Source: Phycisphaerales bacterium (lineage in GTDB: Bacteria; Planctomycetota; Phycisphaerae; Phycisphaerales; SM1A02). From it: 25,000 nt of DNA. The stretch lies in the NCBI GenBank assembly GCA_029248335.1, contig JAQWJM010000050.1:1-25000 (forward strand), written 5' to 3'. Within the stretch, counting starts at the first letter, position 1; each line of letters starts with the position of its first letter. The position numbers and the translations under genes are program-made. The notes under the pieces were generated by a model. It was not told the origin of the DNA. It did no database searches and saw only the letters and a program-made list of their open reading frames with translations. Positions 667 through 23,654 of the stretch are shown piece after piece.

Positions 667-1881
667 ATGACCAACCGCCCGCACTTCTTCACCTCCGAAT
701 CCGTCTCGATGGGCCATCCCGACAAGCTCGCGGACCAGATCTCGGATGCCGTGCTCGACGCCATGATCGCCGTCGACCCGAACTGCCGAGTCGCCTGCGA
801 GACGATGGTCACGACCGGCATGGCGGTGGTCGCCGGCGAAGTCACCTGCGACGGCTACGTGGAGATCGCCGAGATCATCCGCAAGACCGCGGAAGAGATC
901 GGCTACGACGATGCGGCGAAGGGACTCGACGGACGCAGCTGTGCGGTCCTCGTCTCGCTCGACCAGCAGAGCCCCGACATCAACCAGGGCGTGGATCGAC
1001 ACAAGGCGGGTGGCGATCCGTCCGAGCAGGGCGCCGGTGACCAGGGGCTGATGTTCGGCTTCGCGTGTCGCGAGACCGACTCGCTGATGCCGCTTCCCAT
1101 CGACCTCTCCCACAAGCTGGTCGCCCGACAGGCCGAAGTCCGCCAGTCCGAGGCGATCCCCCATCTCCGTCCCGACGCGAAGAGCCAGGTCACCGTCGAA
1201 TACGACGAAGGCCGCCCGACCGCGGTCCGGACCGTCGTGCTCTCGACGCAGCACGGTCCGGAGTGGAACGGCGAGGCGAAGCAGGCGGAACTGAAGGCCG
1301 CCATCATCGAACACGTCATCAAGCCGGTGCTCGGCACCTGGTGGAACGACGACATCGTGGTGCACGTCAATCCGACCGGCAAGTTCGAACTCGGTGGGCC
1401 CCACGGCGACTGCGGCCTCACCGGACGGAAGATCATCGTCGACACCTACGGCGGCCGAGGCCGTCACGGCGGCGGCGCGTTCAGCGGCAAGGATCCCTCG
1501 AAGGTCGACCGCTCCGCGGCGTACATGGCGCGTTACATCGCGAAGAACATCGTGGCCGCCGAACTCGCCGACGAGTGCGAGGTCCAGCTGAGCTACGCGA
1601 TCGGCGTCGCTGAACCGACCTCCGTCCTCGTGGACACCAACGGCACCTCGACCATCGACGAAGCCGCCATCGAAGTGATCGTCCGCGAGCACTTCGATCT
1701 CACCCCGGCCGGCATCATCCGTGATCTCGACCTGCTCAAGCCGATCTACCGCGCCACGGCCGCCCACGGTCACTTCGGCCGCGAACCCGGCGAGGGCGGC
1801 GAAGGCACGTTCACCTGGGAGCGGACCGACAAGGCCGCGGCCCTGAAGTCGGCGGCCGCCGCCGCGACGGTGACCTCCTGA
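667..1881 (+). CDS. metK: S-adenosylmethionine synthetase
   Basis: [24 protein letters not shown], the [23 protein letters not shown] motif and the DTYGG loop are the MetK family hallmarks. The 404-aa length fits. Confidence 0.95.
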
Positions 1882-9491: not shown

Positions 9492-11045
9492 TCAGCCTCG
9501 GAGCAGATCGAAGAGTCGCTTTCGAACGTCCTGCGCGTCGGCCTGTCCGCCCGACGCCTTCATCACCGCACCGACCAGTCGGCCGATCGCGGCATCCTTC
9601 CCGTTTCGAACGTCCTCGGCGGCCTGCGGCTGGGCGACCACCGCGTCGGCGAGCCACTGATTGATCGCGGACTCGTCGCGTACCGCCACCAGATCGTTCG
9701 CTTCCGCGAGGGACGCGATCGGTTCCGGGGAATCCGCCGCGAGTTCGAGCAGCGGATCGATCGCCTGCGCAGGCAGGGTGCCGTCCCGACGAAGTGCGAG
9801 CAGATCGGCGATCTGATTCGCATTGATGCCGAGGTCCGGGACGCCGATACCCTGTTCGTTCGCCCGCTTCGCCATCTGGTTGAGGAGCAGCTTCGCGGCC
9901 TCGTGCCCCGCGGCCGAGGCGGGCGGCGGCACGGGCAGCGACGCCTGGGCGTCGACCACGCGTTCGAAGTAGAGACACAGTTCGCGATCCTCGACCAGGG
10001 CCGCCGCGTCCTTCTCGGGGAGACCGAAGTCGTCCCGGTACCGCGCCCGTCGGGCGATCGGCAGCTCGGGGATCTCCGCCCGGATCCGATCCTTCCACGC
10101 CTCGTCCATCTCGACCGGGAGCAGGTCCGGCTCCGGGAAGTAGCGATAGTCGTGGGCGTCCTCCTTCTCCCGCTGCAGCACGGTGACCAGACGCTCGTCG
10201 TCCCAGCCGCGGGTCTGCTTCATCCCCATGCCCATCACCCGCCCGGTCTCGAGGAACTCGTCGATCTGACGCTCCATCTCGTGCCGGATCGCGCCTTCGA
10301 CCGCGCGGAAGCTGTTGAGGTTCTTGATCTCGATCACCGGCGTCCGGAACTCCCGACCGTCCGTGGTGTCGATGACCAGGTTGATGTTCGGCTCGAACCG
10401 CATGTGCCCCTTCTGCATCACGCCCTCGGTGACCCCGAGGAAGCGACAGAGGGTGCGGAGTTCGCGCGCGAAGATCACGACGTCCTCGGGGCAGTCGAAG
10501 TCGGGCTCGGTGACGATCTCGAGCAGCGGCGTGCCGGCCCGGTTCAGGTCGACGAGACTTCCCGCGAACCGACCACCACCCGGGAGATCGTGCCCGAGCT
10601 TGCCGGTGTCCTCCTCGAGGTGCGCCCGCGTGATCCCGATGCGACGCATGCCGCCGTCGGCATCGGAACTCGACGACGGGATGTCGACCGCCCCGTCGAA
10701 GCAGAGCGGCAGGTCGTACTGGCTGATCTGGTAGCCCTTGGGGAGATCCGGGTACGCGTAGTTCTTGCGATCCCACTTCGCATGCTCGGCGATCGAGCAG
10801 CCGAGGGCCATCCCGACCTTCGCGGACATCTCGACCGCGTGCCGGTTCATCACCGGCAGGGTGCCCGGCAGGGCCGCGACCAGGGGATCGACGAGGGTGT
10901 TCGGTTCCGCGTCCTCGAACTCCGGGCAGGCCGGATTGGCGGCTCGCGTGAACATCTTCGACCGGGTCGAGAGTTCCACGTGGATCTCGAGGCCGACGAT
11001 GAGTCGGGTCGAGGCGATATCGTCTCTGGTGAGGCCGGTCTTCAT
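9492..11045 (-). CDS. gatB: Asp-tRNA(Asn)/Glu-tRNA(Gln) amidotransferase subunit B
   Basis: N-terminal VGLEIHVELSTRSKMF and the C-terminal YqeY-like tail (AIGRLVGAVMKASGGQADAQDV) are present. Length is 517 aa. It sits upstream of hpt on the same strand. Confidence 0.95.
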   Translation of the reverse strand: MKTGLTRDDIASTRLIVGLEIHVELSTRSKMFTRAANPACPEFEDAEPNTLVDPLVAALPGTLPVMNRHAVEMSAKVGMALGCSIAEHAKWDRKNYAYPDLPKGYQISQYDLPLCFDGAVDIPSSSSDADGGMRRIGITRAHLEEDTGKLGHDLPGGGRFAGSLVDLNRAGTPLLEIVTEPDFDCPEDVVIFARELRTLCRFLGVTEGVMQKGHMRFEPNINLVIDTTDGREFRTPVIEIKNLNSFRAVEGAIRHEMERQIDEFLETGRVMGMGMKQTRGWDDERLVTVLQREKEDAHDYRYFPEPDLLPVEMDEAWKDRIRAEIPELPIARRARYRDDFGLPEKDAAALVEDRELCLYFERVVDAQASLPVPPPASAAGHEAAKLLLNQMAKRANEQGIGVPDLGINANQIADLLALRRDGTLPAQAIDPLLELAADSPEPIASLAEANDLVAVRDESAINQWLADAVVAQPQAAEDVRNGKDAAIGRLVGAVMKASGGQADAQDVRKRLFDLLRG

Positions 11046-11121
11046 GCGATCCGCATTCTACGGTTCAATGGCGACCGCACCAGCATCGTGCCCGATCGAC
11101 CGGCCACCCGGAGGCGAGAAC

Positions 11122-12327
11122 ATGCCAGGACCGAAGAACCAGTTTCCGACCCGATCGATCCTCGCCGGCGTGCTGGCGATCGTCACGCTCGCCACGAGCC
11201 CGGACGGCATCGCCGCCGGCCCGACGGCCGCGACCCCGGATGTCGGACGGATGACCATCGACGGAGATCCGCTCCGACCGAACGCCCTCTACAACCGGAT
11301 CGGACGACCGATTCCGGTGGTGTTGTCACTCCGTGGCCGGACCGAGGTGCCCGAGGACGGGTTCGACCTCGTGCTCCTGGCCCCGGACGGCACCGTCCTC
11401 GCCAGCGCGATCGGCGGCGCCGCCGGCGAATTCGATCTGCTGGAAGCCCTTCCCGCCATCGCCGACCTGACCACCACCGCCCGGGTCCAGGTCATCGCGG
11501 ACGGCATCGCGACGGGGTCGCCGCTGGTGATCCAACCGATGGTCGGTCGAACGCCGGTCCGCACCACCCGCGACTATCGCCCCGGAACCACGGACCAGTA
11601 CACGCGGATCATCGGCTTCGGCGAGGAACTCCTCGATCCCGACGACGCCTCGGACGTCGCGGTCCTCGAGCGGGCGAAGGCCGCCCCCGACTGGGATCCG
11701 GGTGAGCCGCCGGTGCTGACCGGATTCCGGATCTTCCCCGACCGCGACGTGCTGGTCGACACGACCCTCGGTCCGATCCGGGTCGCCCTCGCGCCGGAAG
11801 CCGCCCCGAACACCGCGTGGAACTTCCGGCACCTCGCGGAAAACGGTTTCTACGACGACACCACCTTCCACCGAGTGGTCCACTTCGACCGCACCGGTCG
11901 ACGATTCGTGATCCAGGGCGGCGATCCGAGCGGCACCGGCAACGGCAGCGCGGGTTGGGATCTCCCGATGGAACGATCCACGCTGCCGCACGACCTCGGC
12001 GTCATCTCGATGGCCCGGGCCGATCATCCCGACAGTGCGGGCAGCCAGTTCTTCTTCTGCCTCGGACGCCCGGGCACCGCCCGGCTCGACGGTCAGTACT
12101 GCGCCTTCGGCTACGCGGTGGAGGGCGACAAGGCGATCGCGGACATCGCGGACGTCGAGATCGAGGACGTCGCCGCGGGAAGACCGACCGAGCCGCCGGA
12201 GATCACGCGGATGACCCTCGTCCCCGCGCCGCCGCAGACTCCCGGCGACGATCGCGCCGAACGCCGGATCCAGTCGTGGTGGACGCCCGAAGTCGTCGAC
12301 GAACCCGAGACGCGTCAGCCGCGATAG
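11122..12327 (+). CDS. Secreted cyclophilin-type peptidyl-prolyl cis-trans isomerase with a ~230-aa N-terminal domain of unknown function
   Basis: GGAGG sits 7 nt upstream of ATG 11122. A signal-like helix (ILAGVLAIVTLATSP) follows. The C-terminal half carries cyclophilin motifs (FHRVVHFDRTGRRFVIQGGDPSGTGNGSAG, SMARADHPDSAGSQFFFCL). The ORF track extends to 10765, but that stretch is antisense to gatB. Confidence 0.85.
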   Translation: MPGPKNQFPTRSILAGVLAIVTLATSPDGIAAGPTAATPDVGRMTIDGDPLRPNALYNRIGRPIPVVLSLRGRTEVPEDGFDLVLLAPDGTVLASAIGGAAGEFDLLEALPAIADLTTTARVQVIADGIATGSPLVIQPMVGRTPVRTTRDYRPGTTDQYTRIIGFGEELLDPDDASDVAVLERAKAAPDWDPGEPPVLTGFRIFPDRDVLVDTTLGPIRVALAPEAAPNTAWNFRHLAENGFYDDTTFHRVVHFDRTGRRFVIQGGDPSGTGNGSAGWDLPMERSTLPHDLGVISMARADHPDSAGSQFFFCLGRPGTARLDGQYCAFGYAVEGDKAIADIADVEIEDVAAGRPTEPPEITRMTLVPAPPQTPGDDRAERRIQSWWTPEVVDEPETRQPR

Positions 12328-12444: not shown

Positions 12445-14082
12445 TCAGTCCGCGGTCTCCCCGTCGCCTTCACCCGAGGACTTCGGCCGCCTCGGGTTGA
12501 CCACGGTCGGTGAGCCGAGCCCGCCGGTGATGATCGTGGGATTCCCCGGCCCGTCGCTCTCCGCCTTCGCCACGTTGACCGCGGCGTTGGCTTCGAGACT
12601 CGCCTTGAGGACCCGCTCCATCTGGGCGGAGTGCTTGTCGTTTCGCTGGCGTTCCTGTTCGAGCTGGCGACGAAGCAGATCCGCGATCTCCTCGCTGTTC
12701 CGCCCTTCGACCTTCCAACGTTCCGCCAGCGCCGCGGCGACCGCGGGGCTGGTCTCCGCCGCCATCGCCAGCAACTGGTCGGGCGACATGCCCTTCTGCT
12801 TCTCGAGCCGTTCGAGCTCGAGCAGCGCCTCGCTGTCACCGAGGCCGAGCGCGATCTTGGTGGCGGTATCGGCCTCCGCGACCGTCTTCATCCGCTCGCG
12901 TTCGAGTTCGACGTCCTGCATCTTCTTCCGGCGACGGGCATCGAGCGTGTCTTCGCGGATCTTCTTCGCGAGTTCCCAGTCCTTGGCGTCCCCGTCGCGG
13001 CCGACGTCCCGGGCCTGTTCGTCGGCCTTCGCGGTCTCGATCCTGGCTTCGAGGAACGCGACGAGATCGGCCGCCTCCTCCACCCGCTCGTGCTCCCGCT
13101 GCGATTCGTCCAGCGCCTGCTCGTGATCCGACGCCGACTTCTCGCGTCGTTGCTCACTCGTCTGTTCGAACGCCAGCGCGTCGGACTCGAGGCTTGCCTC
13201 GAGCCGGGCGAGTTCGTCGCCTCGAAGCGTGTCCTTCAAGCCGAGTTCGTGGGTCGCCTGGTTGATCCGCTCCCTCAGATCGACCTCGTGACTCCGCTTC
13301 TCCGCCACCTTCTCGCGGACCCGCCGAAGCACGTCGATCTTGGCTTCCTGGAAGTCCGCCTCGTTCTCGTATCGATCGACGAGCGTCTCCCTGGAACGAC
13401 GATCACGATCGCGATCGACGGTCTCCAGACTGTTGCCGATCTCGGCGTCGACGCGGCGCCCACGGACTTCGTCATAGCGTTCGGATTTGACGGTCGTCAC
13501 GCTGACCGCGACGACGTGGAACCCGAAACGCTCGAGGCTCACGGCCAGACGTGACTGCAGCTGCCGCTGCGTCTCGCCTCGAAGCGCGGGATTCCCGTAG
13601 AGATCCTCGATCGGATGGATCCCGGTGAATGCGAGCAGCGCGTCGAGAATCTCCGGATGGAGATGCGACTTGAAGTCGTCGAGCAGATACCGCCGGCGAT
13701 CCTTCATGACGTTCTGGTAGAAGGCCTCCGGCTGGTCGAGTCGGACCACCAGTCGCACGCCCATCTCGAGTTCGATGTGCTCGGCGCTCGCGAGATTCTC
13801 GATCTCGAAATCCATCGACACGTCGCCCGCATCGGTCAGGATCAGCGCGGTCGGATCCTTTCCGCGGAGGAACTTCCGAAGCGGACCGTCGACGTCGTGT
13901 TCGCCGGCCTCGAGCCGGCCCTGCAGGACGCCGCACTCGAAGATGATGGCCTCCGTGCCCTCGTACACCACGTAGGGCTTGTTGCCCCACACCGTGGCGA
14001 CGTCCTCGGCTTCGATGCGGATCGCGAGATCGTTCGGTTCACGTTCCCAGCGATCACTCTTCGGCTTGCTGAACCAACCCAT
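12445..14082 (-). CDS. SPFH/band-7 domain protein with a long C-terminal coiled coil (flotillin-like)
   Basis: ATG 14082 is preceded by GGAAGGAG. The N-terminal ~200 aa fit the SPFH pattern (DVSMDFEIENLASAEHIELEMGVRLVVRLDQPEAFYQNV ... HPEILDALLAFTGIHPIEDLY). After that the sequence is E/R/A/L-rich heptad-like. The upstream extension in the ORF track lacks an SD. Confidence 0.65.
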   Translation of the reverse strand: MGWFSKPKSDRWEREPNDLAIRIEAEDVATVWGNKPYVVYEGTEAIIFECGVLQGRLEAGEHDVDGPLRKFLRGKDPTALILTDAGDVSMDFEIENLASAEHIELEMGVRLVVRLDQPEAFYQNVMKDRRRYLLDDFKSHLHPEILDALLAFTGIHPIEDLYGNPALRGETQRQLQSRLAVSLERFGFHVVAVSVTTVKSERYDEVRGRRVDAEIGNSLETVDRDRDRRSRETLVDRYENEADFQEAKIDVLRRVREKVAEKRSHEVDLRERINQATHELGLKDTLRGDELARLEASLESDALAFEQTSEQRREKSASDHEQALDESQREHERVEEAADLVAFLEARIETAKADEQARDVGRDGDAKDWELAKKIREDTLDARRRKKMQDVELERERMKTVAEADTATKIALGLGDSEALLELERLEKQKGMSPDQLLAMAAETSPAVAAALAERWKVEGRNSEEIADLLRRQLEQERQRNDKHSAQMERVLKASLEANAAVNVAKAESDGPGNPTIITGGLGSPTVVNPRRPKSSGEGDGETAD

Positions 14083-14102
14083 GGGGAGCTCCTTCCAGAC
14101 GC

Positions 14103-14810
14103 TCAGTGCTTGAGGTTTCTTGACTTCAGGGCGAGCGCGAGTCTGCGCCGGGAGAAGAGGAGTACGACGGCCAGGCCGCAGCCGACCACCGTACCGGAGA
14201 TCACCGTGGGAACGAACCATGGATCGTCGACCCAGTCCCTTCCCAGTCCCATCGCGAGCGTGGCGGGATCGATCGGGACGGAACCGTCCCCGATGAAGAC
14301 CGCGGACTCGCCGGTCGTGGGATCCGACGTGGTCACTTCGATCCTCGCCTGCGCCGCCAGTCCGCTCTCGTCGATCCGCGCGTATCGAACCCGCCCCCAG
14401 GCGATCACCCCCGGACCGTCCGACGCGACATATTCCAGCACCCGGCTCGCGATCGCCTCGTCGTCATCGACGTCCACCGGATCCGCCCCGCCTCCACTCG
14501 TCGATCCGAGGTCGATCCGTCGGATGCTCCGTCGCCCGGACGCCGCGGTCAACGCGGCTTCGAAGGTGACGGTGGTCATGCCCTCGGCATCACCGAAGAG
14601 CGGCAACACCGCGACGAGTTCGAGCCCCGCGGGCAGGCCCTGCATGATCTTCCCCGCGACGTCGTCGGCCGCGAGCCGCGTCGCGGATTCGATGGCCTGC
14701 CGCGATCCGGGCGGACCGTCGACGACCGGGGTCTGACCGGCGTTCGCCGAGGCCCCGACCAGAAGCAGCAGCGCGAAGACCGTTCGAATCCCTGCATCGA
14801 GTCGCTTCAT
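14103..14810 (-). CDS. Hypothetical secreted/membrane-anchored protein (N-terminal signal peptide, C-terminal TM helix); operon partner of the SPFH gene
   Basis: ATG 14810 is preceded by GAGGGAG. It reads MKRLDAGIRTVFALLLLVGASANAG (signal peptide) and ends with a C-terminal TVISGTVVGCGLAVVLLF helix. There is a 20-nt gap to the SPFH gene start, and a 4-nt overlap with the upstream HTH gene. Confidence 0.5.
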   Translation of the reverse strand: MKRLDAGIRTVFALLLLVGASANAGQTPVVDGPPGSRQAIESATRLAADDVAGKIMQGLPAGLELVAVLPLFGDAEGMTTVTFEAALTAASGRRSIRRIDLGSTSGGGADPVDVDDDEAIASRVLEYVASDGPGVIAWGRVRYARIDESGLAAQARIEVTTSDPTTGESAVFIGDGSVPIDPATLAMGLGRDWVDDPWFVPTVISGTVVGCGLAVVLLFSRRRLALALKSRNLKH

Positions 14811-15169
14811 CGTGAATCTCCCTCGTTCGTCGGTACCGGCGACGCCTGTCGTCTGCCGGCATCCCAGGCTGATTTCCGGATCGGCGCCCCGGTATCGATC
14901 GCATAGCCGCCGATGTCCAGCGCACTCATGATCCGCTCGCCGGTCACGCAACATCGGACCTCCTGAAGCGGGACCAGGGGGCGGCCGATCTCGGAAGCGA
15001 CCGCCTGCTTCGTCGAATCGAAATACGCCTCGAGATCGGTCCGGCTGACCCGGTAGACCCGACCGACCTTCCCGGCGGCGAGATCACCCTTGCGGACCAG
15101 GCGGTAGACCGTCTTGTAATCGACGCCGAGGATCTCCGCTGTTTCTTCGAGACTGAGCAGTTGTTGCAT
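14807..15169 (-). CDS. Excisionase-family helix-turn-helix DNA-binding protein with a ~65-aa C-terminal extension
   Basis: LSLEETAEILGVDYKTVYRLVRKGDLAAGKVGRVYRVSRTDLEAYF matches the excisionase/MerR-like HTH_17 pattern. It is the first gene of the minus-strand operon. Confidence 0.7.
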   Translation of the reverse strand: MQQLLSLEETAEILGVDYKTVYRLVRKGDLAAGKVGRVYRVSRTDLEAYFDSTKQAVASEIGRPLVPLQEVRCCVTGERIMSALDIGGYAIDTGAPIRKSAWDAGRRQASPVPTNEGDSR

Positions 15170-15381
15170 GAAAGGGCTCCTGCGAGAATCCCATCAACTT
15201 GAGGCTCTCGTACCCTTGTTTGGACTCTCTTGCCCCCGCTTTCATCCTTTCGACCGAAATCCGGCCGACGCGGGCGATCAGGGGCCGGAACGCCGAGAAT
15301 GGGGTTTGAACACCGATCGATGCAGGCACCGGGACGACCGTTCCCACCCATATCATCCCGAATCGAGACAGGTCTCCACGA

Positions 15382-16743
15382 ATGAAAGAGTTCGAGTCCC
15401 CGATAGAAATCACGTTCGACGTGAGCCGGATCTACAAGGAACGGCTCGCGGACGTCGCGTCGTTCCGGTTTCGAAATCGGGCCGATGAGCGTTTTCATCT
15501 CGTCGTCAATCTGAGAAGTCGGATCTTCTCCCGCCCGGTCGAAGTCGATCTCAAGCTCGGACCGGCGCAGGTCCGGACGCATCGAATCCCGCTGGAGCTG
15601 CCGTGCCGCGAGACGTGCTCCGAAGGCCGGGGCAGTTCGGGCCGCCATCCCATCCAGATCATGCTCCTGATCTCCGAGGGAGACACGCCGAACGACGAAC
15701 GACACGCCTTCACCGGCGAGAAGATGACCATGGTCCTGGAGGACGACGCCAGTCCCCGGACCATCGTGAACCACATCAACGTGAAGATCGAGCAGCATGG
15801 CGACAAGGCCGGCTGGGGCGCGATCAACGAGATCAACATGCCGGCGGCCGAGATCCAGGACGATCCTGAATCGAACAACGATTTCCTTGAACGACTGAGC
15901 ACGCTTCCTCCCGCGTTCGAGCCGATCCCGCTCGACTACGAAGGCGTGATGGACGCGTCCCGGACCGCGATTCCCTCGATCGTCGACCGCAGTCCCTCGA
16001 CGCCGACGCTCGATCGATGCGCCATCGACCGACCACGAAGCCGCTCGCGGATCCTCGCCCTGACCGGGCGTTCCATCAACTTCGGCAAACGGCGGAAGGA
16101 CGTCGACGTCACCACCTGGCACCTGCCGCGGACGAGTTCCAACGACGAACGAACGAAGCGGATCTCCGGGGTGCAGTGTCGACTGGAGATGACCGGTGAG
16201 GGCATCTGCCTCGAGCATCTTTCCGCCACCAACCAGACCCGCCTCGACGATGTCTCCGTGAAGCAGAGAACGCCGATCGACCTCCATGGAATCTCGAACC
16301 TGCATCTGCCCGGGGGCTTCCAGCTCGAGTTGATCCCGCAACACGTTCCTGCCACCTTCGCGCAACACGCCACCGCCTGGCGTCGCCTCGGTGACGCCAC
16401 CTTCCAGGAGGCGTGCCGCTGGTCCGAGAGGACCCACATCGGCGGCCTCCTGATCCGACGCACCGATGCCCTCCGCTCGGTCGAGGAGTATCTCTGGATC
16501 CTTTCCGCGATCGCGGCGCCGCGATGCGGAGACGACCTGCCTCCGTTCACGCTCGCCGCCATCGAGGGCCTCCACGTCTTCGCGATCGGCTCGGGCAACG
16601 GCGCCACCATTCGAAACGCGGACGACGACGCCCCGATGCTCGAGAACGCCGCCTGTCGACTGGCGATCGACGACTCGGTCGCCTGGGACGACGGACGGCT
16701 CGAATTCAACGAATGGCGACAGTCCGGCCTCGACGACGACTGA
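15382..16743 (+). CDS. FHA (forkhead-associated, phosphothreonine-binding) domain protein; N-terminal 250 aa of unknown function
   Basis: RISGVQCRLEMTGEGICLEHLSATNQTRLDDVSVKQRTPIDLHGISNLHLPGGFQLEL fits the FHA consensus (SRxHa..., LeDLgStNGT, L.dGD.i.lG). Third codon positions are GC-biased. The antisense ORF 14944..16884 is low-complexity. Confidence 0.65.
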   Translation: MKEFESPIEITFDVSRIYKERLADVASFRFRNRADERFHLVVNLRSRIFSRPVEVDLKLGPAQVRTHRIPLELPCRETCSEGRGSSGRHPIQIMLLISEGDTPNDERHAFTGEKMTMVLEDDASPRTIVNHINVKIEQHGDKAGWGAINEINMPAAEIQDDPESNNDFLERLSTLPPAFEPIPLDYEGVMDASRTAIPSIVDRSPSTPTLDRCAIDRPRSRSRILALTGRSINFGKRRKDVDVTTWHLPRTSSNDERTKRISGVQCRLEMTGEGICLEHLSATNQTRLDDVSVKQRTPIDLHGISNLHLPGGFQLELIPQHVPATFAQHATAWRRLGDATFQEACRWSERTHIGGLLIRRTDALRSVEEYLWILSAIAAPRCGDDLPPFTLAAIEGLHVFAIGSGNGATIRNADDDAPMLENAACRLAIDDSVAWDDGRLEFNEWRQSGLDDD

Positions 16744-16905
16744 CCGGACCGCGACCGGAACCCGTGTGCTCGACGCGGATGGAGCGTCACAGGCGAGCTT
16801 CGCAAGACGTGATGATCTTCTCATCGTCGGGCTCCGCGGGTCGCGGTCGGGAGAAGGGGTGTCGATCCACCGAAGTGCCCGCACCCCGGATGGACGATGC
16901 TCGCC

Positions 16906-19900
16906 CTAGGAGCCGTCGCCCGCCGATGCGACGTTCACCTTCGATTCGAAACCGGCATTCGCCGTCTCCGAGGACCGACCGGGATCGGCACTCGATCCGG
17001 GCTCGGTCTCGTCACCGCGAGCGACCGTGGAGATCCTCACGCGGAGGCCTTCGGGCGGCGTGCACTGGCCGGACGGATTGGACCCCCAGCCGACGACCGA
17101 GCCGTCCGACAGGAGAGCGATCGTGTGGTCGCCGCCCGCGGCCACGCTCGCCACCGGATTCTCCGGCGTGCCGATCCCCGGAGGGACGTCGCACTGACCG
17201 TAGTTGTTCCCGCCCCAACACGCGACCGAGCCGTTCGCGAGCACGGCCACGGTGTGGTTGTCTCCCGCCGACACGGTCGCGACGGGGTTCTCCGGCGTGC
17301 CGATCCCGTCCGGAACATCGCACTGACCGGGTCCGTTGTAACCCCAGCAGACGATCGAGCCGTTCAACAGCACGGCGACGGTGTGGGAACTTCCGGCCGC
17401 CACGTTCGAGACCGGATTCTCCGGAGTCCCGATTCCGCTCGGGACGTCGCACTGGCCGATGAGGTTGTTCCCCCAGCAGACGACGGAACCGTCCGCCAGC
17501 AGCGCGACGGTGTGGCGGGTACCCACGGCGACTCGATCCACGGGATTCTCAGACGTGCCGACCCCCTCCGGAACGTCGCACTGGCCGGAGCCGTTGAAGC
17601 CCCAGCAGACCACCGAACCGTCCGCAAGCAACGCGACGGTGTGGAAGTAGCCCGCGGCCGCGCTCGCGACCGGGTTCTTCGCCGTGCCGACCTGGATCGG
17701 CACGTCGCACTGGCCGTCGTTGTTGCCGCCCCAGCAGGTGACCGAACCGTCCGCGGACACCGCCACGGAATGGGAGCCGCCCGCCGCCACCTTCATCACG
17801 GCGTTGTCGTTCGAGCCGATTCCTTCGGGGACGTCGCACTGGCCGTCCTGGTTGCCGCCCCAGCACGCGATCGTGCCGTCTTCGACGACGGTCACGGTGT
17901 GCACGCCACCGGCGGAGATCCGACCGATGTTGGCGGTGATCCGTTCGTGGCCGGCATCGAGACGGGCCGCTTCGATCTTGGCCGCTTCGAAACGCCGATC
18001 CAGCACGATCTTCGTCAACGCCGCCCGGCGATCATCGAGATTCGTCTTCGCGGCGAGTCGCGCGACGTCGGCGAGCTCGAACTTCAATCGCGAAAGGTCG
18101 CACTGTCCCTCGTTGTTACCGCCCCAGCTGGAGACCGAGCCGTCGGCCAGCACCGCGATGGTGTGGGCACCACCGGCGATGACGCTCGCCACCGGACGAT
18201 CCGGCGTGCCGATCTCGACCGGAATCGTGCACTGGCCCGAGTTGTCTCGTCCCCACGCCGCGAGCGAGCCGTCCATGAGCAGGGCGACGGTGTGATCGTC
18301 ACCCGCGGTCACGCTCGCGACCGGATTCTTCGCGGTGCCGACCTTCGTCGGGACGTCGCACTGGCCGTGCTCGTTGTCACCCCAGCAGACGACCGAACCG
18401 TCCGCGAGGACCGCGACCGAGTGCTCCGCGCCCGCGATCACGTTCGCGACGGGATTTCGAGGCGTGCCGATGTCGACCGGCACATCGCACTGCCGAGCCG
18501 TGTTGCGTCCCCAGCAGGCCACCGAACCATCCGCGAGCACCGCGATGGTGTGGTCATCGCCCGCGGCCACGCTCGCGACCGTGTTCTCCCCCACTCCGAT
18601 TCCTTCCGGAACGTCGCACTGTCCATCGACGTTCTGCCCCCAGCAGGCGACGGAACCGTCCTTGAGCATCGCCACGGTGTGATAGCGGCCGGGAACCACG
18701 CTTGCGACCGGATTCTCCAGCGTGCCGATTCCCTCCGGCACCTCGCACTGGCCGTGGTCGTTGTATCCCCAGCAGGCCACCGAGCCGTCCGCGAGCAGGG
18801 CGACGGTGTGATGGCGGCCCGGTTCGACGCTCAAGACGGGATTCTCCGGCGTCCCGATTCCGCGTGGAATCTTTCGTTCGCCGAAGTAGTTGAAGCCCCA
18901 GCAGCCCTTCGGACCGAGCGAGCCGTCGGAAAGAACCGCGACCGTGATATCCCCGCCGGCGGCGATCGACCGCACGGGAAGCGGCATGAACCACCAGAAC
19001 GCGAACGTACCGATCGCCGCGAGCGTGGTGACGAAGGCGACCGATCGGCCGACACGACGCCGCCTCAGCGCCGCGACGTGGCGGGCGTTCCCGACGGTCC
19101 GGCGATGCGCTTCCAGCGCCTGCGACCATCGCTTGCGATTCGTCAACGCGATCTTGCGCAGTTCGATCGCGCCCGCCCGCGCTTCCTCCCACGCCAGCGC
19201 CGTCACGTGCAGATCGACCTGATCCATGAGGTCCGATTGCCGCGTCATTCCGTCGCTCAGGGCCGGGTTCCGTTCGCCACCGGAACCGATCTCCTTGATC
19301 AATCCCCTGGTATCGGCGACGATCACGTCGATCTCCGGACGCAGTCCCAGGTACTCCTGCCGCGCCTTCGAGGTCTTCCGAATCCAGGCGCAGTGCTTGT
19401 CCACGAGGCCGCGAACGGATCTCGTCGTGGACAGCACGCCCATCCAGTCACCTGCTTGCGTCTGAGCTTTCACCCGGGCGTCGAGGCTGATCCGCTTCGC
19501 CCGGAACTCCTCGAACCGCGATCGGCCGCCCAGCGCGGTCTCCGTCTCGCAGGAGATCAGTTCCTCGTCGAGATGGGCGATCTGCGCACGGACCTTCATG
19601 ACCTTCCGATGGACGGTGAGCACGCCCTCGGACCAGGCGACGTGTGATTCGATCAGATCACGCAACGTCGACAGCGTCGCTTCCGCCTTTATCCACTCGC
19701 CCTCGCCGATCTGACGCGAGAGATCCTCGTCCAGCTTCGCTCGCCCGGAACGGAACTCCCGGGTCTTGGCCACTTCGCTCAGATCGACTCGAAGATCGAT
19801 CTCCGCGATTCGGGCGTCGCATTCCTTGATCTCTTCGCGAAGCGTCTCGGTTCGCTGTCGAATGTCCGAGATCTGTCTCAGACGCGACCGTTGTGCTTCG

Positions 19901-21504
19901 GCCTGGGTGTGGAGATCACTGGCGGTGGCTCGTGCCTCGAGCCACGCCTGCGAGGTCATCTCCGTCTCCAGTCGATCCTTCAATTCAACGCGATTCGACC
20001 GATACGCCACGATCTTCGGATCGGAATCGTGATCCGACTCGCTCTCGAGCGAACCGAGGTCACCATCGATCCGATCGACGTCGGCGATGAAACGAATCAC
20101 TTCCTCGCGGGCCGTGCGCAGCGAACGCACCCACTTCCGATGCGTCGACACCGGCTCGATGATGGCCTTTGCGGTCTGACACGCGGACGACCAGTCCAGG
20201 GCACCGACTTCCTTCTCGAGACGTCGATCGAGCTCCGTACGATTCGTCTTGTAGGCCTGCGAACGAGGCAGTTCATGCAGATCAAGTCCCACGCGATCCG
20301 CATTCAGCCCCTTGTCGATCTCCAGAATGTCCGCCCGCAGTCGCCGGAAGGCGTCATAGGGCGCGCGTGCCGACTGGATCTCTTCGTAGAGTCCGCACGC
20401 CCGCTCGAGAATCGCCGCCGCATCCGACCAGAGCCGGCCGAGCTTGTTCTCCTTCGCCGACTCGAGAAAATGACCAGCTCGCTCGAATTTCGCCATATAG
20501 GCCTGCGGAAGCGGCTCGCCTTCCTCCAGGACCCGCTTCGCCTCGCGACCCAGGATCCGCACCCGACTCTCGAGATCCACGAGATCGGCGGCGCTGCGAG
20601 GCGACCCATCCGAAGGCTGGGGCGAGGCGCTGCGGGCGGTCTTCGGCCGGGGAGCGGCGGCGCTTCCCTCGAACTGGAAGAACGCCTTGCACGACCTCGG
20701 TCGATCGGCGGGATCCTTCGAGAGGCCATTCATCAGGAGTTCCGAGATCTCCAGCCCCTCGAGCTCGCGAGGCATGTCCGGAATCTCCTCGAGGATCTGG
20801 TGCCGAAGGTCGCCACGACTGAACGGTGGCTCGCCCGAGAGGCACTCCCACATCGTCGCCGCGAGGCTGTAGATGTCCTGCGCCGCGGCGGGTTTTCGTC
20901 CCCGAAGCTGTTCCGGCGACATGTAGGGCAGCGTCCCGGAGTTCGACTCCCGGCCCGTCAACAACGTCGAAGTCTCCTTCGCCTCTCGCGCGATTCCGAA
21001 ATCCATGATGAGCGGCGTGCCGTCGTCACGGATCATGATGTTCGAGGGCTTCACGTCGCGATGGATCACACCGCGACGGTGCGCGTAGTCGAGCGCCTCG
21101 CCGATCGGGCCGAAGACCCGGACCACTTCGGATTCGTCCATCCGGTCGCGGTCCACGAGGATCTCCTCGATCGACTGCCCGTCGACGTGATCCATGACGA
21201 GGAAAGGCTGGCCTGAATCCATCTCCTCGAAGCCACGCACCGTCACGACGTTCGGGTGCGAGAGCTCCATGGCGTGGAGCGCTTCTCGCTTCAATCCGGC
21301 GATCGCCCGCTTGTTCGCCGCGAGAAACGAGGGAAGCAGTTTCACCGCGAACAGACGGTCGTCGAGCTTGAGATCCTCGACCAGATGCACTTCGCCCATT
21401 CCGCCGGCGCCGAGACGGCGGACCACGCGATACCGACCGGCAAGCAACGGGTGCTTGCCTTCGGGAATCGTCTGGCCGAACTGGTCGGGAGCGGGGGCGG
21501 ACAT
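16906..21504 (-). CDS. Receptor-type Ser/Thr protein kinase (1532 aa): kinase domain, ~6 helical ~80-aa repeats, one TM helix, two 7-bladed RCC1-like beta-propellers
   Basis: Kinase motifs are GAGGMGEV (Gly loop), AVKLL (VAIK), HRDVKPSN, DFGIA and SPE. The TM helix is VAFVTTLAAIGTFAFWWFMPLPV. The RCC1 unit HTVALLADGSVxCWGxNxxGQCDVP occurs 14 times. The most plausible start is the Met 20 codons inside the longest ORF (MSAPAPDQ...). Confidence 0.9.
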   Translation of the reverse strand: MSAPAPDQFGQTIPEGKHPLLAGRYRVVRRLGAGGMGEVHLVEDLKLDDRLFAVKLLPSFLAANKRAIAGLKREALHAMELSHPNVVTVRGFEEMDSGQPFLVMDHVDGQSIEEILVDRDRMDESEVVRVFGPIGEALDYAHRRGVIHRDVKPSNIMIRDDGTPLIMDFGIAREAKETSTLLTGRESNSGTLPYMSPEQLRGRKPAAAQDIYSLAATMWECLSGEPPFSRGDLRHQILEEIPDMPRELEGLEISELLMNGLSKDPADRPRSCKAFFQFEGSAAAPRPKTARSASPQPSDGSPRSAADLVDLESRVRILGREAKRVLEEGEPLPQAYMAKFERAGHFLESAKENKLGRLWSDAAAILERACGLYEEIQSARAPYDAFRRLRADILEIDKGLNADRVGLDLHELPRSQAYKTNRTELDRRLEKEVGALDWSSACQTAKAIIEPVSTHRKWVRSLRTAREEVIRFIADVDRIDGDLGSLESESDHDSDPKIVAYRSNRVELKDRLETEMTSQAWLEARATASDLHTQAEAQRSRLRQISDIRQRTETLREEIKECDARIAEIDLRVDLSEVAKTREFRSGRAKLDEDLSRQIGEGEWIKAEATLSTLRDLIESHVAWSEGVLTVHRKVMKVRAQIAHLDEELISCETETALGGRSRFEEFRAKRISLDARVKAQTQAGDWMGVLSTTRSVRGLVDKHCAWIRKTSKARQEYLGLRPEIDVIVADTRGLIKEIGSGGERNPALSDGMTRQSDLMDQVDLHVTALAWEEARAGAIELRKIALTNRKRWSQALEAHRRTVGNARHVAALRRRRVGRSVAFVTTLAAIGTFAFWWFMPLPVRSIAAGGDITVAVLSDGSLGPKGCWGFNYFGERKIPRGIGTPENPVLSVEPGRHHTVALLADGSVACWGYNDHGQCEVPEGIGTLENPVASVVPGRYHTVAMLKDGSVACWGQNVDGQCDVPEGIGVGENTVASVAAGDDHTIAVLADGSVACWGRNTARQCDVPVDIGTPRNPVANVIAGAEHSVAVLADGSVVCWGDNEHGQCDVPTKVGTAKNPVASVTAGDDHTVALLMDGSLAAWGRDNSGQCTIPVEIGTPDRPVASVIAGGAHTIAVLADGSVSSWGGNNEGQCDLSRLKFELADVARLAAKTNLDDRRAALTKIVLDRRFEAAKIEAARLDAGHERITANIGRISAGGVHTVTVVEDGTIACWGGNQDGQCDVPEGIGSNDNAVMKVAAGGSHSVAVSADGSVTCWGGNNDGQCDVPIQVGTAKNPVASAAAGYFHTVALLADGSVVCWGFNGSGQCDVPEGVGTSENPVDRVAVGTRHTVALLADGSVVCWGNNLIGQCDVPSGIGTPENPVSNVAAGSSHTVAVLLNGSIVCWGYNGPGQCDVPDGIGTPENPVATVSAGDNHTVAVLANGSVACWGGNNYGQCDVPPGIGTPENPVASVAAGGDHTIALLSDGSVVGWGSNPSGQCTPPEGLRVRISTVARGDETEPGSSADPGRSSETANAGFESKVNVASAGDGS
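17052..18972. repeat. Tandem ~130-bp coding repeats (14 RCC1-like blades in two blocks, split by a ~55-aa helical insert at ~17922..18084)
   Basis: The antisense motif gtcgcactggcc (GQCD) recurs every ~129-132 nt. Other-frame ORFs repeat peptides such as GTSHWP and QQTTEPSA. Confidence 0.7.
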
Positions 21505-21779
21505 CAACAGACTCTTACGAAGGAACGTGTGCGAATTCCAGCAGTTCCCCCGAACCACAAACACTGCGCCCCTCGATCTTAACGACAGAAACGTGCGAAA
21601 GCCTCATGGAAAAACAAACCGCCAAACACCGCCATAAACCGCCAGTGACCGCAAGTCGTCGGCGTGACTTTTGCGCTTCAAAGCATCATCCGTTTATTCG
21701 GACTCCACGCTCGCGCGCATGCATCGCGGCACGACGCCGCCGCCATCACGTTGATGACGCATGAAGAACGCACCACCCC

Positions 21780-21818
21780 CTCGATCGACATGCGACCGAG
21801 GGGGTGGTGTTTCAAATC
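21780..21818. terminator. 13-bp perfect-stem hairpin (caccaccccctcg ... cgagggggtggtg, 13-nt loop) between the cyclophilin and kinase genes; candidate intrinsic terminator
   Basis: Read in the sequence. It lies in a lower-GC A-rich spacer 21505..21842. The plus-strand side is followed by TTTCAAAT, the minus-strand side by CGTTCTTC. Confidence 0.45.
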
Positions 21819-21842: not shown

Positions 21843-22346
21843 TCAGGCGGTCTCGACGGCCTTGATGCCACCGGTCATGCGAGGCATCTCGCCTTCGGGG
21901 AAACCGTTGCCGTCCTTCTTGACGCCCGCGATCGCCTCGACCACGTCCATGCCGTCGATCACCTTGCCGAAGGCGGTGTACTCACCGTCGAGGTGCTGGC
22001 AGCCGCCGCGGCTCAGGCAGATGAAGAACTGGCTGCCCGCGCTGTTGGGATCCGCGGAGCGGGCCATCGACAGGACGCCTTCCTCGTGCTGCTTGTCGTT
22101 GAACTCGGCGTTGACGTTGTAGCCGGGGCCGCCGGTGCCGGGCATCCCGTTCGCGCCTTCCTTGGTGTTCGGGCATCCGCCCTGGATCACGAAGTTGTCG
22201 AGGATCCGGTGGAAACCGAGACCGTCGTAGAAGCCCTTCGCACCGAGGTCGAGCATGTTCTTGACGTGATTGGGCGCCACGTCGTCCCACAGCTCGACGG
22301 TGATGGTGCCCTTGTCGGTTTCGATGATTGCCTGGGGGTAGGCCAC
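21843..22346 (-). CDS. ppiB: Peptidyl-prolyl cis-trans isomerase, cyclophilin type (PpiB-like, 168 aa)
   Basis: FHRILDNFVIQGGCP, SMARSADPNSAGSQFFICL and GEYTAFGKVIDGMDVV are cyclophilin motifs. The preferred start is GTG 22346 (MAYPQAIIETDKG) with GGAGA 8 nt upstream. The longer ORF to 22601 adds an unlikely Arg/Pro-rich leader. Confidence 0.85.
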   Translation of the reverse strand: MAYPQAIIETDKGTITVELWDDVAPNHVKNMLDLGAKGFYDGLGFHRILDNFVIQGGCPNTKEGANGMPGTGGPGYNVNAEFNDKQHEEGVLSMARSADPNSAGSQFFICLSRGGCQHLDGEYTAFGKVIDGMDVVEAIAGVKKDGNGFPEGEMPRMTGGIKAVETA

Positions 22347-22444
22347 GGCGGTCTCCAGATACGGGTTTGAAAATGCGAGCGGAAAGGATATCAGGACGGA
22401 CGAGCCGTCCGGCGGCGGATGAAGGGGAATCCCTCCAGACCCCG

Positions 22445-23425
22445 TCAGGGACCGATGCTTCGGCCTTCGGTCGGCGTGCGAACCGCGGTCGGAAGCAGGT
22501 AGTTGCGGCCCTGATACATGGTGACGACCCCGCTCAGGAGCACCGCGGAGCCGACGCCGGCCTGCCGGGTCCGGCGGATCAGCCGTTCGAGTTCGAGACA
22601 AGGCAGCAACTGGACGCTCGATCCACCGCCCTGACGACCGGTGCCCTCCAGCACGAATCTCCAGATCCCGCTCGCCGGGTCGCGAACCACCCGGCCTCGT
22701 CGCTGCACGAAACGCGTCCCCGCCTTCAACGCGGCGGGCTCGGTGGGCGGCGCCGCCAGCACGTCGAGGCTTCGAGGAACCGCACCGATCCGCGACTCCA
22801 GTCGCGACTCGATCTCCGAAGCGTAATCACGCTCCTCGAGCGGATCCGAACCATCGGGATCGGTCGCGGTCTCCGACGTCGCCGCGGCTGGAACGGTCTG
22901 ATCGACCGGTTCGTTCCCGGTCGCATCCTCGTCGGTTCGACGGACCGGCACGATCGCGCCGGGAAGCAGGAAGTTCCTGCCTTGGAAGACGAGGACCTTC
23001 CCGGTCACCTCGTAGATCCCGGCGGTGGGATTGCCGCGCGCCGAAGCCGGCTGAACCGACTCCAACCGAACCAGGTCGTCGAGGCCTCGACTCGGGAGAA
23101 GAATCAACTCGCGACGGATGCCGCCGGTCGCGGTGGCGAGCGGTCGATAGACGTGGACGCCGAGCTCCGCGTCGCGTTCGATCTCCCCTTCGACCTTGAC
23201 CAGAAACCCACCCTCCCGAAGGAGTGGCGGCCGTCCGCCCCGGTCGACGTCATCGGGAATGACCACGCGCCTCGTGGGTGCGGTGATCCTCGAGTCGTCG
23301 GAGGGGGGCGTGGCGTCGGGATCCTGTCCCACGACGGGTGTCGCGAGACCGCATGCGAGCAGGGCCGGCAACGCGGCCGCGAGGAGTCCGAAGGGTCGAG
23401 ACTGAGGAGATCGCATCGTGCTCAT
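22445..23425 (-). CDS. Hypothetical secreted protein (possible lipoprotein) with an internal duplication
   Basis: It begins with a signal peptide and LLAC (MSTMRSPQSRPFGLLAAALPALLACG). Two related segments (VTGKVLVFQGRNFLLPGAIVPV and VLLSGVVTMYQGRNYLLPTAVRT) each follow G-rich or acidic linkers. Third positions are GC-biased. Confidence 0.55.
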   Translation of the reverse strand: MSTMRSPQSRPFGLLAAALPALLACGLATPVVGQDPDATPPSDDSRITAPTRRVVIPDDVDRGGRPPLLREGGFLVKVEGEIERDAELGVHVYRPLATATGGIRRELILLPSRGLDDLVRLESVQPASARGNPTAGIYEVTGKVLVFQGRNFLLPGAIVPVRRTDEDATGNEPVDQTVPAAATSETATDPDGSDPLEERDYASEIESRLESRIGAVPRSLDVLAAPPTEPAALKAGTRFVQRRGRVVRDPASGIWRFVLEGTGRQGGGSSVQLLPCLELERLIRRTRQAGVGSAVLLSGVVTMYQGRNYLLPTAVRTPTEGRSIGP

Positions 23426-23574
23426 GCGATGAATGCTACGCCGAATCGACTCCGCCCAGCACCGCTCCGGGCCCGGTTCGCTTCCCGGAGAACGCCAGGA
23501 CGCTCTTTCGGCGAAATCGAAGATTTGAAAGAGGCGATCGGCGACCCGCCACCCGATATATACTCTCGAGCCCT

Positions 23575-23648
23575 GGCCGAGTACCCAAGTGGACTAAGGG
23601 AACGGATTGCAAATCCGTGATTCGTGGGTTCGAATCCCACCTCGGCCT
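23575..23648 (+). tRNA. tRNA-Cys (anticodon GCA)
   Basis: Folded by hand. The acceptor stem GGCCGAG/CTCGGCC closes and the discriminator is T. The anticodon stem ACGGA/TCCGT carries loop TTGCAAA, and the T arm GTGGG-TTCGAAT-CCCAC carries the canonical TTCGAAT loop. No CCA is encoded. TATACT lies 11 nt upstream. Confidence 0.85.
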
Positions 23649-23654
23649 TTGAAC

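Follow-up and report, generated by a model that had tools for sequence, protein, structure and literature searches.

A predicted receptor-type Hanks kinase with two consecutive RCC1/BLIP-II-type propellers and a helical-repeat stalk in marine Phycisphaerales

The stretch of DNA analyzed here, hereafter called the window, comprises 25,000 nucleotides from contig JAQWJM010000050.1 of an uncultured marine Phycisphaerales (Planctomycetota) metagenome-assembled genome (MAG; assembly GCA_029248335.1) and carries a gene for a 1532-amino-acid (aa) protein kinase (Table 1). An earlier, sequence-only reading of this locus had described one protein joining a Hanks-type kinase, a helical-repeat stalk, one transmembrane (TM) helix and two RCC1-type propellers, and this description is borne out by the open reading frame (ORF), Pfam matches, hydropathy and AlphaFold models. 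That description gave no strand; the gene lies on the minus strand, where the ORF list and translation reveal one intact reading frame beginning with ATG. An upstream GTG codon at position 21564 would yield a protein of 1552 aa; the ATG start is favored by the N-termini of homologues (MSTPFDHE.TIPEG...) and by the NCBI record. The protein is identical to NCBI entry MDG1977666.1, annotated as “protein kinase [Phycisphaerales bacterium].” Its 90%-identity cluster includes about 10 full-length members from separate assemblies, and the protein is 99% conserved across many MAGs.

The window has a GC content of about 66%, and two long ORFs that overlap genes discussed here were rejected as antisense shadows. 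One (16897..19647, plus strand, 916 aa) lies opposite the RCC1 repeats in DNA of this composition. The other (14944..16884, minus strand, 646 aa) encodes an Arg-rich product without a Pfam match, opposite the conserved gene for an FHA-like protein.

Table 1. Features of the kinase gene, its neighbors and its relatives. Positions are those of the window unless preceded by L001 (ERZ21849166:contig_11868), L002 or L083 (both ERZ21849172:contig_17634), which come from a related metagenomic organism.
Feature	Positions	Strand	Basis
Complete kinase coding sequence (stop codon 16906..16908)	16906..21504	-	ORF list, translation
Hanks-type Ser/Thr kinase domain, residues 25-270	20695..21432	-	Pfam PF00069
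Conserved juxtakinase helical segment, residues 296-411 (ADLVDLESRVRIL...FERAGHFLESAKENKLGRLWSDA)	20272..20619	-	Family comparison
Predicted cytoplasmic stalk, five tandem 83-aa helical repeats, residues 412-816	19057..20271	-	Repeat alignment, hidden Markov model (HMM), AlphaFold
Single predicted TM helix, residues 822-844 (VAFVTTLAAIGTFAFWWFMPLPV)	18973..19041	-	Kyte-Doolittle, flanking charge
Propeller 1, blades 1-7, residues 847-1137	18094..18966	-	Seven xWG motifs; AlphaFold
Linker between propellers, residues 1138-1192 (55 aa)	17929..18093	-	AlphaFold, homology
Propeller 2, blades 8-14, residues 1193-1493	17026..17928	-	Seven xWG motifs; AlphaFold
Predicted disordered C-terminal tail, residues 1494-1532	16909..17025	-	AlphaFold, predicted local distance difference test (pLDDT) <50
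Terminator-like hairpin (17-bp stem, 12 GC pairs) between upstream cyclophilin gene and kinase gene	21771..21809	-
Convergent 453-aa protein, divergent FHA-like core (~residues 225-320)	15382..16743	+	NCBI label, family profile
Conserved neighbor block, likely operon	12445..15169	-	Pfam, NCBIfam
HTH_17/excisionase-type DNA-binding protein (weak MAD1 similarity below cut-off)	14807..15169	-	Pfam, NCBIfam
~240-aa protein, signal-like N-terminus, C-terminal TM segment	14103..14954	-
SPFH/Band 7 protein, long charged coiled-coil tail	12445..14220	-
Frameshifted gene: kinase, three stalk repeats, TM helix, propeller 1, (EAARL)n coiled coil, propeller 2	L002 5962-7947 + 8062-9948
Intact 1592-aa ORF: juxtakinase segment, seven stalk repeats, TM helix, twin propellers with same coiled coil	L083 3284..8062
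Kinase with frameshift in G run; one propeller, then helical linker (P0002 + next reading frame)	L001 9605..13724
783-aa paralogue: kinase, juxtakinase segment, four stalk repeats, C-terminal TM anchor, no ectodomain	L083 8059..10410

The N-terminal domain matches the Pfam Pkinase model over residues 25-270 (E 4e-41, 141.5 bits against a cut-off of 31.7). Its translation includes the catalytic motifs GAGGMGEV, AVK (K55), E74, HRDVKPSN (148-155), DFG (168-170) and SPE (196-198), all of which are invariant in the family alignment. The kinase is of the RD type, and its activation loop carries Ser/Thr residues. By profile and motifs, the domain is of the Hanks type and has all the catalytic motifs expected of an active RD-type enzyme. 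Its best NCBIfam match is the PknB/Stk1 model NF033483, but only the kinase domain is matched, at 228.5 bits where the cut-off is 450. Because this score falls below the cut-off and the Pfam scan found no PASTA domain, identity as a PASTA kinase was rejected. Many metagenomic Ser/Thr kinases (STKs) bearing FGE-sulfatase, Sel1, LysM, LRR or TPR domains at their C-termini are 50-60% identical in this domain. A scan of contigs with the kinase/juxtakinase alignment returned 80 unrelated STKs from many phyla (32-40% identity), seeded by generic kinase peptides (YMSPEQ, LGxGGMG).

The C-terminal part of the protein is predicted to form two consecutive propellers. Pfam models RCC1_2 (PF13540; 13 stretches, 360 bits against a cut-off of 22) and the WD40_RLD/RCC1-like domain (PF25390; E 1e-131, 440 bits against a cut-off of 150) both match, and fourteen [CSAG]WG motifs recur with an exact spacing of 43 residues, seven at 868..1126 and seven at 1214..1472. 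An AlphaFold model of residues 846-1532, built on a 64-sequence alignment, averages a pLDDT of 86; the majority of 10-residue blocks in the propellers score 94-98, and each blade has three strands. Propeller 2 is modeled as seven complete three-stranded blades (block-mean pLDDT mostly 95-98), and in propeller 1 blades 2-7 are modeled with three strands each at pLDDT 90-98, which gives six confident blades. Between the propellers, the model places two low-confidence helices (pLDDT 39-62), in agreement with the ~55-aa helical insert described earlier, and the protein ends in a low-complexity tail rich in Gly, Ser, Asp and Glu.

When the model was compared with PDB structures using Foldseek, the top match was BLIP-II (TM-score 0.84 on target, root-mean-square deviation 2.4 A, 32% identity), followed by the UVR8, RPGR and RCC1 propellers and the ectodomain of plant ACR4/CR4 (TM-score ~0.77). 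A phmmer search of PDB sequences also returned BLIP-II (E 3e-37), UVR8 (~1e-24), RCC1 (~1e-14) and ACR4 (1.4e-9). Profile and fold searches therefore give RCC1/BLIP-II rather than NHL or Kelch, in line with the RCC1 assignment of the sequence-only reading. By sequence and model, the repeats belong to the RCC1 superfamily and are of its short, three-stranded BLIP-II type.

The regularity of the blades (consensus VAxVxAGxxHTVAxLADGSVxCWGxNxxGQCDVPxGIGTxxNP) had been taken as a sign of recent amplification, an idea that the identities do not bear out. Blades are 45-72% identical in protein, with averages among internal blades of 60% in propeller 1 and 67% in propeller 2. At the DNA level, Tandem Repeats Finder reports a 129-bp period with 13.7 copies, 64% matches and 6% indels, and shorter overlapping rows reach 71-74% matches. 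Differences between blades are concentrated at 7 of the 43 positions (8, 9, 25, 27, 28, 35 and 40). Given this low identity and the few variable positions, the regularity is better explained by a constrained scaffold with variable loops than by recent duplication.

Duplication of a whole propeller in recent times is likewise not demonstrable. Identity between the two propellers is 61%, no higher than the 54-64% found between either of them and paralogue propellers in another organism, and blades of the same index across the two propellers are 55% identical, compared with 52% for other blade pairs. Comparing the blades one by one reveals no positional orthology between the propellers or with the paralogues, except for the terminal blade of propeller 2, which ends with QCTPPEGLRVR as in single-propeller paralogues.

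In the whole protein, just one 19-residue window exceeds 1.6 on the Kyte-Doolittle scale. It falls within residues 822-844, a run of 23 uncharged residues that is long enough to span a bilayer, and this lone peak supports the TM segment proposed earlier. Of the 15 residues that precede this run, six are Arg, as opposed to one of the 15 that follow it, and by the positive-inside rule this charge difference (+6 versus +1) predicts an N-in/C-out orientation with the propellers outside. Relatives keep a hydrophobic helix with an RR..R / FxWW.P motif, and a TM helix occupies the equivalent place in three of them, its position being kept and its sequence not. As predicted from hydropathy and charge, the protein would be a single-pass receptor-type STK whose kinase is cytoplasmic and whose one TM helix precedes the C-terminal domain. 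We consider it likely that the gene encodes an N-in/C-out receptor-type Hanks Ser/Thr kinase that displays two BLIP-II/RCC1-type propellers outside the membrane.

Two helical elements lie between the kinase and the membrane. The juxtakinase segment (consensus ADLxDLESRVRIL...FERAGHFxESAKENK..LWSDA) is restricted to RCC1-bearing kinases among the 293 proteins fetched, and is present even in a kinase subfamily that is only ~50% identical in the catalytic domain. The five stalk repeats that follow align without gaps, are 10-27% identical, and share two conserved Trp residues that are 20 residues apart. AlphaFold, given an 8-sequence alignment, models residues 296-850 as nearly all helix (pLDDT 74); each repeat is rendered as a helix of ~22 aa followed by one of ~50 aa, and the final helix continues into the TM helix. 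A Pfam scan found no model that matches the repeat, and Foldseek found no significant fold match in the PDB for the stalk model, the best (EzrA, spectrin and designed helical proteins) all having E >1. Based on these comparisons, residues 412-816 appear to be built from a previously unnamed 83-aa helical stalk repeat.

An HMM of the stalk repeat finds three copies in L001, three in L002, four in the tail-anchored L083 paralogue and seven in the twin-propeller ORF of L083, compared with the five present here, and the copy number thus shifts by whole units. Two adjacent repeats in the seven-copy protein are still 84% identical in DNA, which indicates recent repeat expansion in L083. Within the kinase-RCC1 family, stalk repeats were seen only in proteins that have a hydrophobic helix. 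A scan of metagenome contigs with the juxtakinase and stalk alignment found no relative.

If the kinase is indeed a receptor, the propellers would be located in the periplasm or at the cell surface, where each might present a binding face formed by the hypervariable loop positions of its blades (AG-xx-H, WG-x-N-xx-GQ and VP-x-G). Binding of a protein or glycan ligand could alter oligomeric state or geometry, and this change may be passed via the TM helix and helical stalk to permit trans-autophosphorylation of the activation loop. Phospho-Thr sites might then recruit the divergent FHA-like protein that is encoded convergently next door, with output possibly occurring through the neighboring HTH_17 and SPFH genes.

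A different function for the same propellers is suggested by BLIP-II itself, which ranks first in the sequence comparison as well as in the structural one. This protein from Streptomyces exfoliatus (PDB 1JTD, 3QHY, 3QI0) is, like each unit proposed here, a seven-bladed RCC1-like propeller with three-stranded blades of ~40 aa that acts outside the cytoplasm, and the secreted protein binds class A beta-lactamases very tightly (PDB entry titles 1jtd, 3qi0). The propellers of the kinase could therefore be BLIP-II-like binding or inhibitor modules that hold the kinase at a periplasmic enzyme or block that enzyme, for instance a penicillin-binding protein (PBP), a protein with the beta-lactamase fold or another envelope enzyme. 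Kinase activity would then report envelope status rather than an external ligand. The concentration of blade variation in a few loop positions, including AG-xx-H, fits this proposal, and these positions probably match the hot-spot loops of BLIP-II. However, BLIP-II is a small secreted single propeller without kinase, stalk or membrane anchor, its identity to the propellers here is only ~32%, and its beta-lactamase binding cannot be assumed for them; the fold by itself implies neither this inhibition nor the Ran-GEF activity of RCC1 proper. Moreover, the window contains no beta-lactamase or PBP gene, and paralogues without a TM helix would need a cytoplasmic target for the same scaffold. We regard an enzyme-directed role as doubtful, although it overlaps with the receptor proposal in that both couple a kinase to the binding of a protein on the outer side of the membrane.

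Several points weigh against the receptor interpretation. The topology is based solely on hydropathy and the positive-inside rule, and the closest paralogues share the propeller (55-78% identical) without any TM helix. These proteins (P0138, P0142, P0145, P0155 and P0221; 718-748 aa), which were found with the ectodomain as the query, consist of the kinase, the juxtakinase segment, an (EAERV/EAARL)n coiled coil and one seven-blade propeller ending with QCTPPxGLRVRLPE. The propeller module is therefore not intrinsically extracytoplasmic, and apparently it also works in the cytoplasm in these paralogues. Thus, the earlier statement that the propellers lie outside the membrane agrees with the positive-inside rule for this protein, but does not hold as a property of the module. 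Two Cys residues per blade are kept in TM and TM-less proteins alike, and so they do not serve as a marker of an oxidizing compartment.

The models and the neighborhood add further cautions. Blade 1 of propeller 1 is poorly modeled, with pLDDT <50 over its first 20 residues; it is membrane-proximal and irregular, with a 3-aa insertion and no GQC. Since this blade is not confidently modeled, the seven-fold count of propeller 1 is based on sequence periodicity, so that the seven blades per propeller claimed earlier are found in both sequence and model for propeller 2, whereas propeller 1 has seven by sequence and six in the model. A predicted template modeling score of 0.52 leaves the mutual orientation of the two propellers undefined. 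Assignment of the adjacent 453-aa protein to the FHA family is weak (E 0.02), and the HMMs of Pfam and NCBIfam find no match in it. A Pfam scan identified no phosphatase gene among window ORFs of at least 150 aa. Lastly, ligand, dimerization and output are all inferred.

The TM-less paralogues also lend themselves to the opposite view that the entire protein is cytoplasmic, with the hydrophobic segment acting as a tether or re-entrant anchor and the propellers being autoinhibitory or substrate-recruiting, as in those paralogues and in NEK8/NEK9. Five close paralogues share the kinase, the juxtakinase segment, the coiled coil and the propeller but lack a hydrophobic helix, proteins with and without the helix show one and the same Cys pattern, and propeller 2 with its preceding linker resembles the cytoplasmic module of the paralogues. 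Against this view stand the 23 uncharged, Arg-flanked residues of bilayer-spanning length with their strong positive-inside bias, and the retention of this segment in position, not sequence, in three relatives. In addition, the confinement of stalk repeats to helix-bearing proteins suggests a distinct membrane-spanning subfamily. We therefore consider a wholly cytoplasmic location quite improbable, and a receptor with external propellers remains our preferred interpretation.

Relatives on the L001, L002 and L083 contigs show that the architecture is not unique, contrary to what the earlier description had implied, given that this related organism has further twin-propeller proteins and numerous kinase paralogues with a single propeller. 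On these contigs, at least nine kinase-RCC1 paralogues lie in tandem arrays that flank a conserved block of HTH_17, 242-aa and Band 7 genes. Many of the array genes are frameshifted at homopolymers, and most paralogues have one propeller and no membrane helix. Twin propellers recur in L002 and L083, so that this form represents a conserved subfamily. The L001 relative instead has its linker followed by ~330 aa without a Pfam match where the second propeller would be, and by these sequences the module that follows propeller 1 is exchangeable. The linker of the window protein shares homology with two coiled coils: the (EAARL)n one found at this site in relatives, and the one ahead of the propeller in TM-less paralogues. 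The inter-propeller insert is thus, by its sequence, a degenerate form of the coiled coil that joins kinase to propeller in the soluble proteins.

A search with residues 1-1195 against 1.84 billion representatives gave a best 150 dominated by giant multi-RCC1 proteins of up to 7013 aa, and the only kinase-containing matches among these 150 were P0145, P0155, P0325 and two fragments. The matches from the representative library (P0304-P0451) are mostly giant bacterial proteins, 2000-7000 aa in length, in which as many as 27 RCC1 stretches were matched. Judged from such sequences, tandem RCC1 propellers are very common in bacterial proteins outside kinases. In a second, unrelated family (P0128, P0206, P0215 and P0218), the RCC1 repeats are N-terminal and an atypical kinase-like domain lies at the C-terminus.

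These relationships invite a broader hypothesis, that marine Phycisphaerae possess a lineage-specific family of receptor kinases assembled from interchangeable parts, in which the propeller is used inside or outside the membrane and is coupled to a private, divergent FHA-like adaptor. The parts would be the kinase, the juxtakinase segment, 0-7 of the 83-aa repeats, an optional TM helix, and one or two BLIP-II-like propellers with coiled-coil spacers. We offer this picture tentatively and think it unlikely to be correct as a whole. If true, the family would be an independently assembled bacterial counterpart of plant CRINKLY4 signaling, and a natural system for examining how rigid stalk length and a tandem ectodomain tune transmembrane kinase activation.

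The plant CRINKLY4 (CR4/ACR4) receptor kinases likewise use a BLIP-II-like propeller as the ectodomain of a receptor kinase. However, the plant proteins have an N-terminal ectodomain with a signal peptide and a C-terminal kinase, an order that is reversed here, and they combine one propeller with a TNFR-like Cys-rich domain, which is absent from the bacterial protein. In CR4, moreover, every blade contains one disulfide, and the pore is filled by an N-terminal strand, a feature that its authors called unique. In the protein described here, the second Cys lies after the WG motif (CWG-x6-GQC) and not before it, and Cys residues are not lost in pairs: blades 6, 7 and 14 lose the Cys of CWG yet keep that of GQC. 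Given also that the cytoplasmic paralogues keep both, a CR4-like blade disulfide is not supported. Membership in the CRINKLY4 family was rejected, because domain order, Cys-rich domain and Cys spacing differ and only the propeller fold is common, and the shared combination is convergent. This parallel is a useful case of convergence.

Eukaryotic NEK8 and NEK9 have an N-terminal kinase and a C-terminal RCC1-like domain made from canonical four-stranded long blades. As soluble proteins of this layout they parallel the five TM-less paralogues, although the relationship, as far as shown, extends only to the domain families; the NEK proteins are eukaryotic and differ in blade type. In overall layout the protein resembles bacterial receptor Hanks kinases that carry repeat sensors, including PknD (NHL) and Planctomycetota proteins with WD40, PQQ, TPR or FGE-sulfatase domains, which also place an N-terminal cytoplasmic kinase before one TM helix and a C-terminal extracytoplasmic sensor. 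The NHL sensor of Mycobacterium tuberculosis PknD is a propeller. In contrast to these kinases, the protein reported here has a duplicated RCC1/BLIP-II-type sensor with a coiled-coil spacer, and a ~520-aa ordered helical-repeat cytoplasmic linker in place of a short juxtamembrane segment.

Bacterial Hanks kinases are far less understood than two-component systems, and to our knowledge almost no ligand or output has been established for the hundreds of sensor architectures in Planctomycetota. A survey of this phylum (PMC11032199) cataloged 105 accessory domains in 307 STK architectures, and found that 70-80% of the STKs are membrane proteins with periplasmic repeat sensors, the dominant layout being an N-terminal kinase, one TM helix and a C-terminal sensor. 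RCC1 was not found in the portions of its supplementary domain tables that we consulted, nor by occurrence counts in three general surveys or reviews. Literature searches on RCC1 together with bacterial or Hanks-type kinases returned no description of a bacterial STK with an RCC1/BLIP-II ectodomain. The protein is thus an undescribed form of receptor kinase with an unusual sensor and not a new kind of system; bacterial receptor kinases are already very diverse.

This form adds a BLIP-II/RCC1-type tandem-propeller sensor and an 83-aa helical stalk repeat to the catalog of Planctomycetota STKs. Natural comparators, including TM-less, single-propeller, tail-anchored and 3- to 7-repeat proteins, could help to take apart transmembrane signaling by single-pass kinases. 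The host is an uncultured organism represented by a marine MAG, the finding has no bearing on a long-standing question, and another planctomycete STK architecture will not surprise specialists.

The surroundings of the kinase gene offer candidate partners. The strong terminator-like hairpin directly follows the cyclophilin gene, ~270 nucleotides upstream of the kinase start codon. It separates the two genes and points to transcription of the kinase gene as a unit by itself. On the other side is the convergent gene for the 453-aa protein, whose identical sequence at NCBI is labeled “FHA domain-containing protein.” Against the PDB, its family profile finds Ki-67 FHA best (E 0.02), then aprataxin FHA (E 1), aligned over the S..H/S.TN.T core. 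The divergent FHA-like core of the neighbor contains GR...SGVQC...SATNQT. The family is narrow, with 11 clusters, and all clusters that have an organism name are from Phycisphaerae.

The gene for this FHA-like protein adjoins the kinase gene in L001 too. In the 1592-aa ORF of L083, the N-terminus corresponds to the first 190 aa of the FHA-like neighbor family, fused in frame, and a truncated kinase ORF lies directly upstream. This ORF may reflect a genuine rearrangement, which would tie the two genes together functionally, or else a chimera of the assembly. The in-frame fusion provides Rosetta-stone-type support for a functional link between neighbor and receptor, with assembly error as the other possible source. 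By its sequence and position, the 453-aa protein is a candidate phospho-dependent partner of the kinase. The order of the kinase, FHA-like, HTH_17/excisionase-type, ~240-aa membrane protein and SPFH genes is common to the window, L001 and L002/L083, and on the basis of this synteny alone we infer a functional link of the last three genes to the kinase.

In the related organism, the tandem arrays include shuffled architectures and truncated copies, and repeats in them have recently been duplicated. This is also what might be expected if the gene belonged to a conflict or defense island, with the kinase acting as an anti-phage or antagonism sensor and the propellers as rapidly diversifying recognition modules. 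The HTH_17 neighbor weakly matches MAD1 of the MADS system, and the kinase matches PD-T4-6 and mad6 models. However, the PADLOC matches span only the generic kinase domain, and NCBIfam scores are well below their cut-offs (MAD6, 142 bits against 460; MAD1, 36 against 80). No methyltransferase or other defense-system gene was found in the window, where the kinase gene occurs only once, among housekeeping genes that encode GatB, a phosphoribosyltransferase and cyclophilins. Its 99% conservation across many MAGs also gives no sign of diversification. We therefore view a defense function as very improbable, and specific identities as PD-T4-6, MADS MAD6 or BREX PglW (104 bits against 990) were rejected as generic kinase-domain similarity. 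A receptor kinase with external propellers remains the interpretation that we favor.

Other features of the window are recorded here as separate observations. Two genes for cyclophilin-type peptidyl-prolyl isomerases occur within 12 kb (21843..22601, minus strand; 10765..12327, plus strand), the second of which encodes a ~330-aa N-terminal extension without assignment. ARAGORN and Rfam identify a tRNA-Cys (GCA) gene at 23575..23648 on the plus strand, within a mechanically called ORF (22328..23620/23338..23652) that is therefore unlikely to be coding there. Finally, a 687-aa protein encoded at 4054..6117 on the minus strand combines 4Fe-4S dicluster motifs with C-terminal TPR repeats, which is an unusual pairing.

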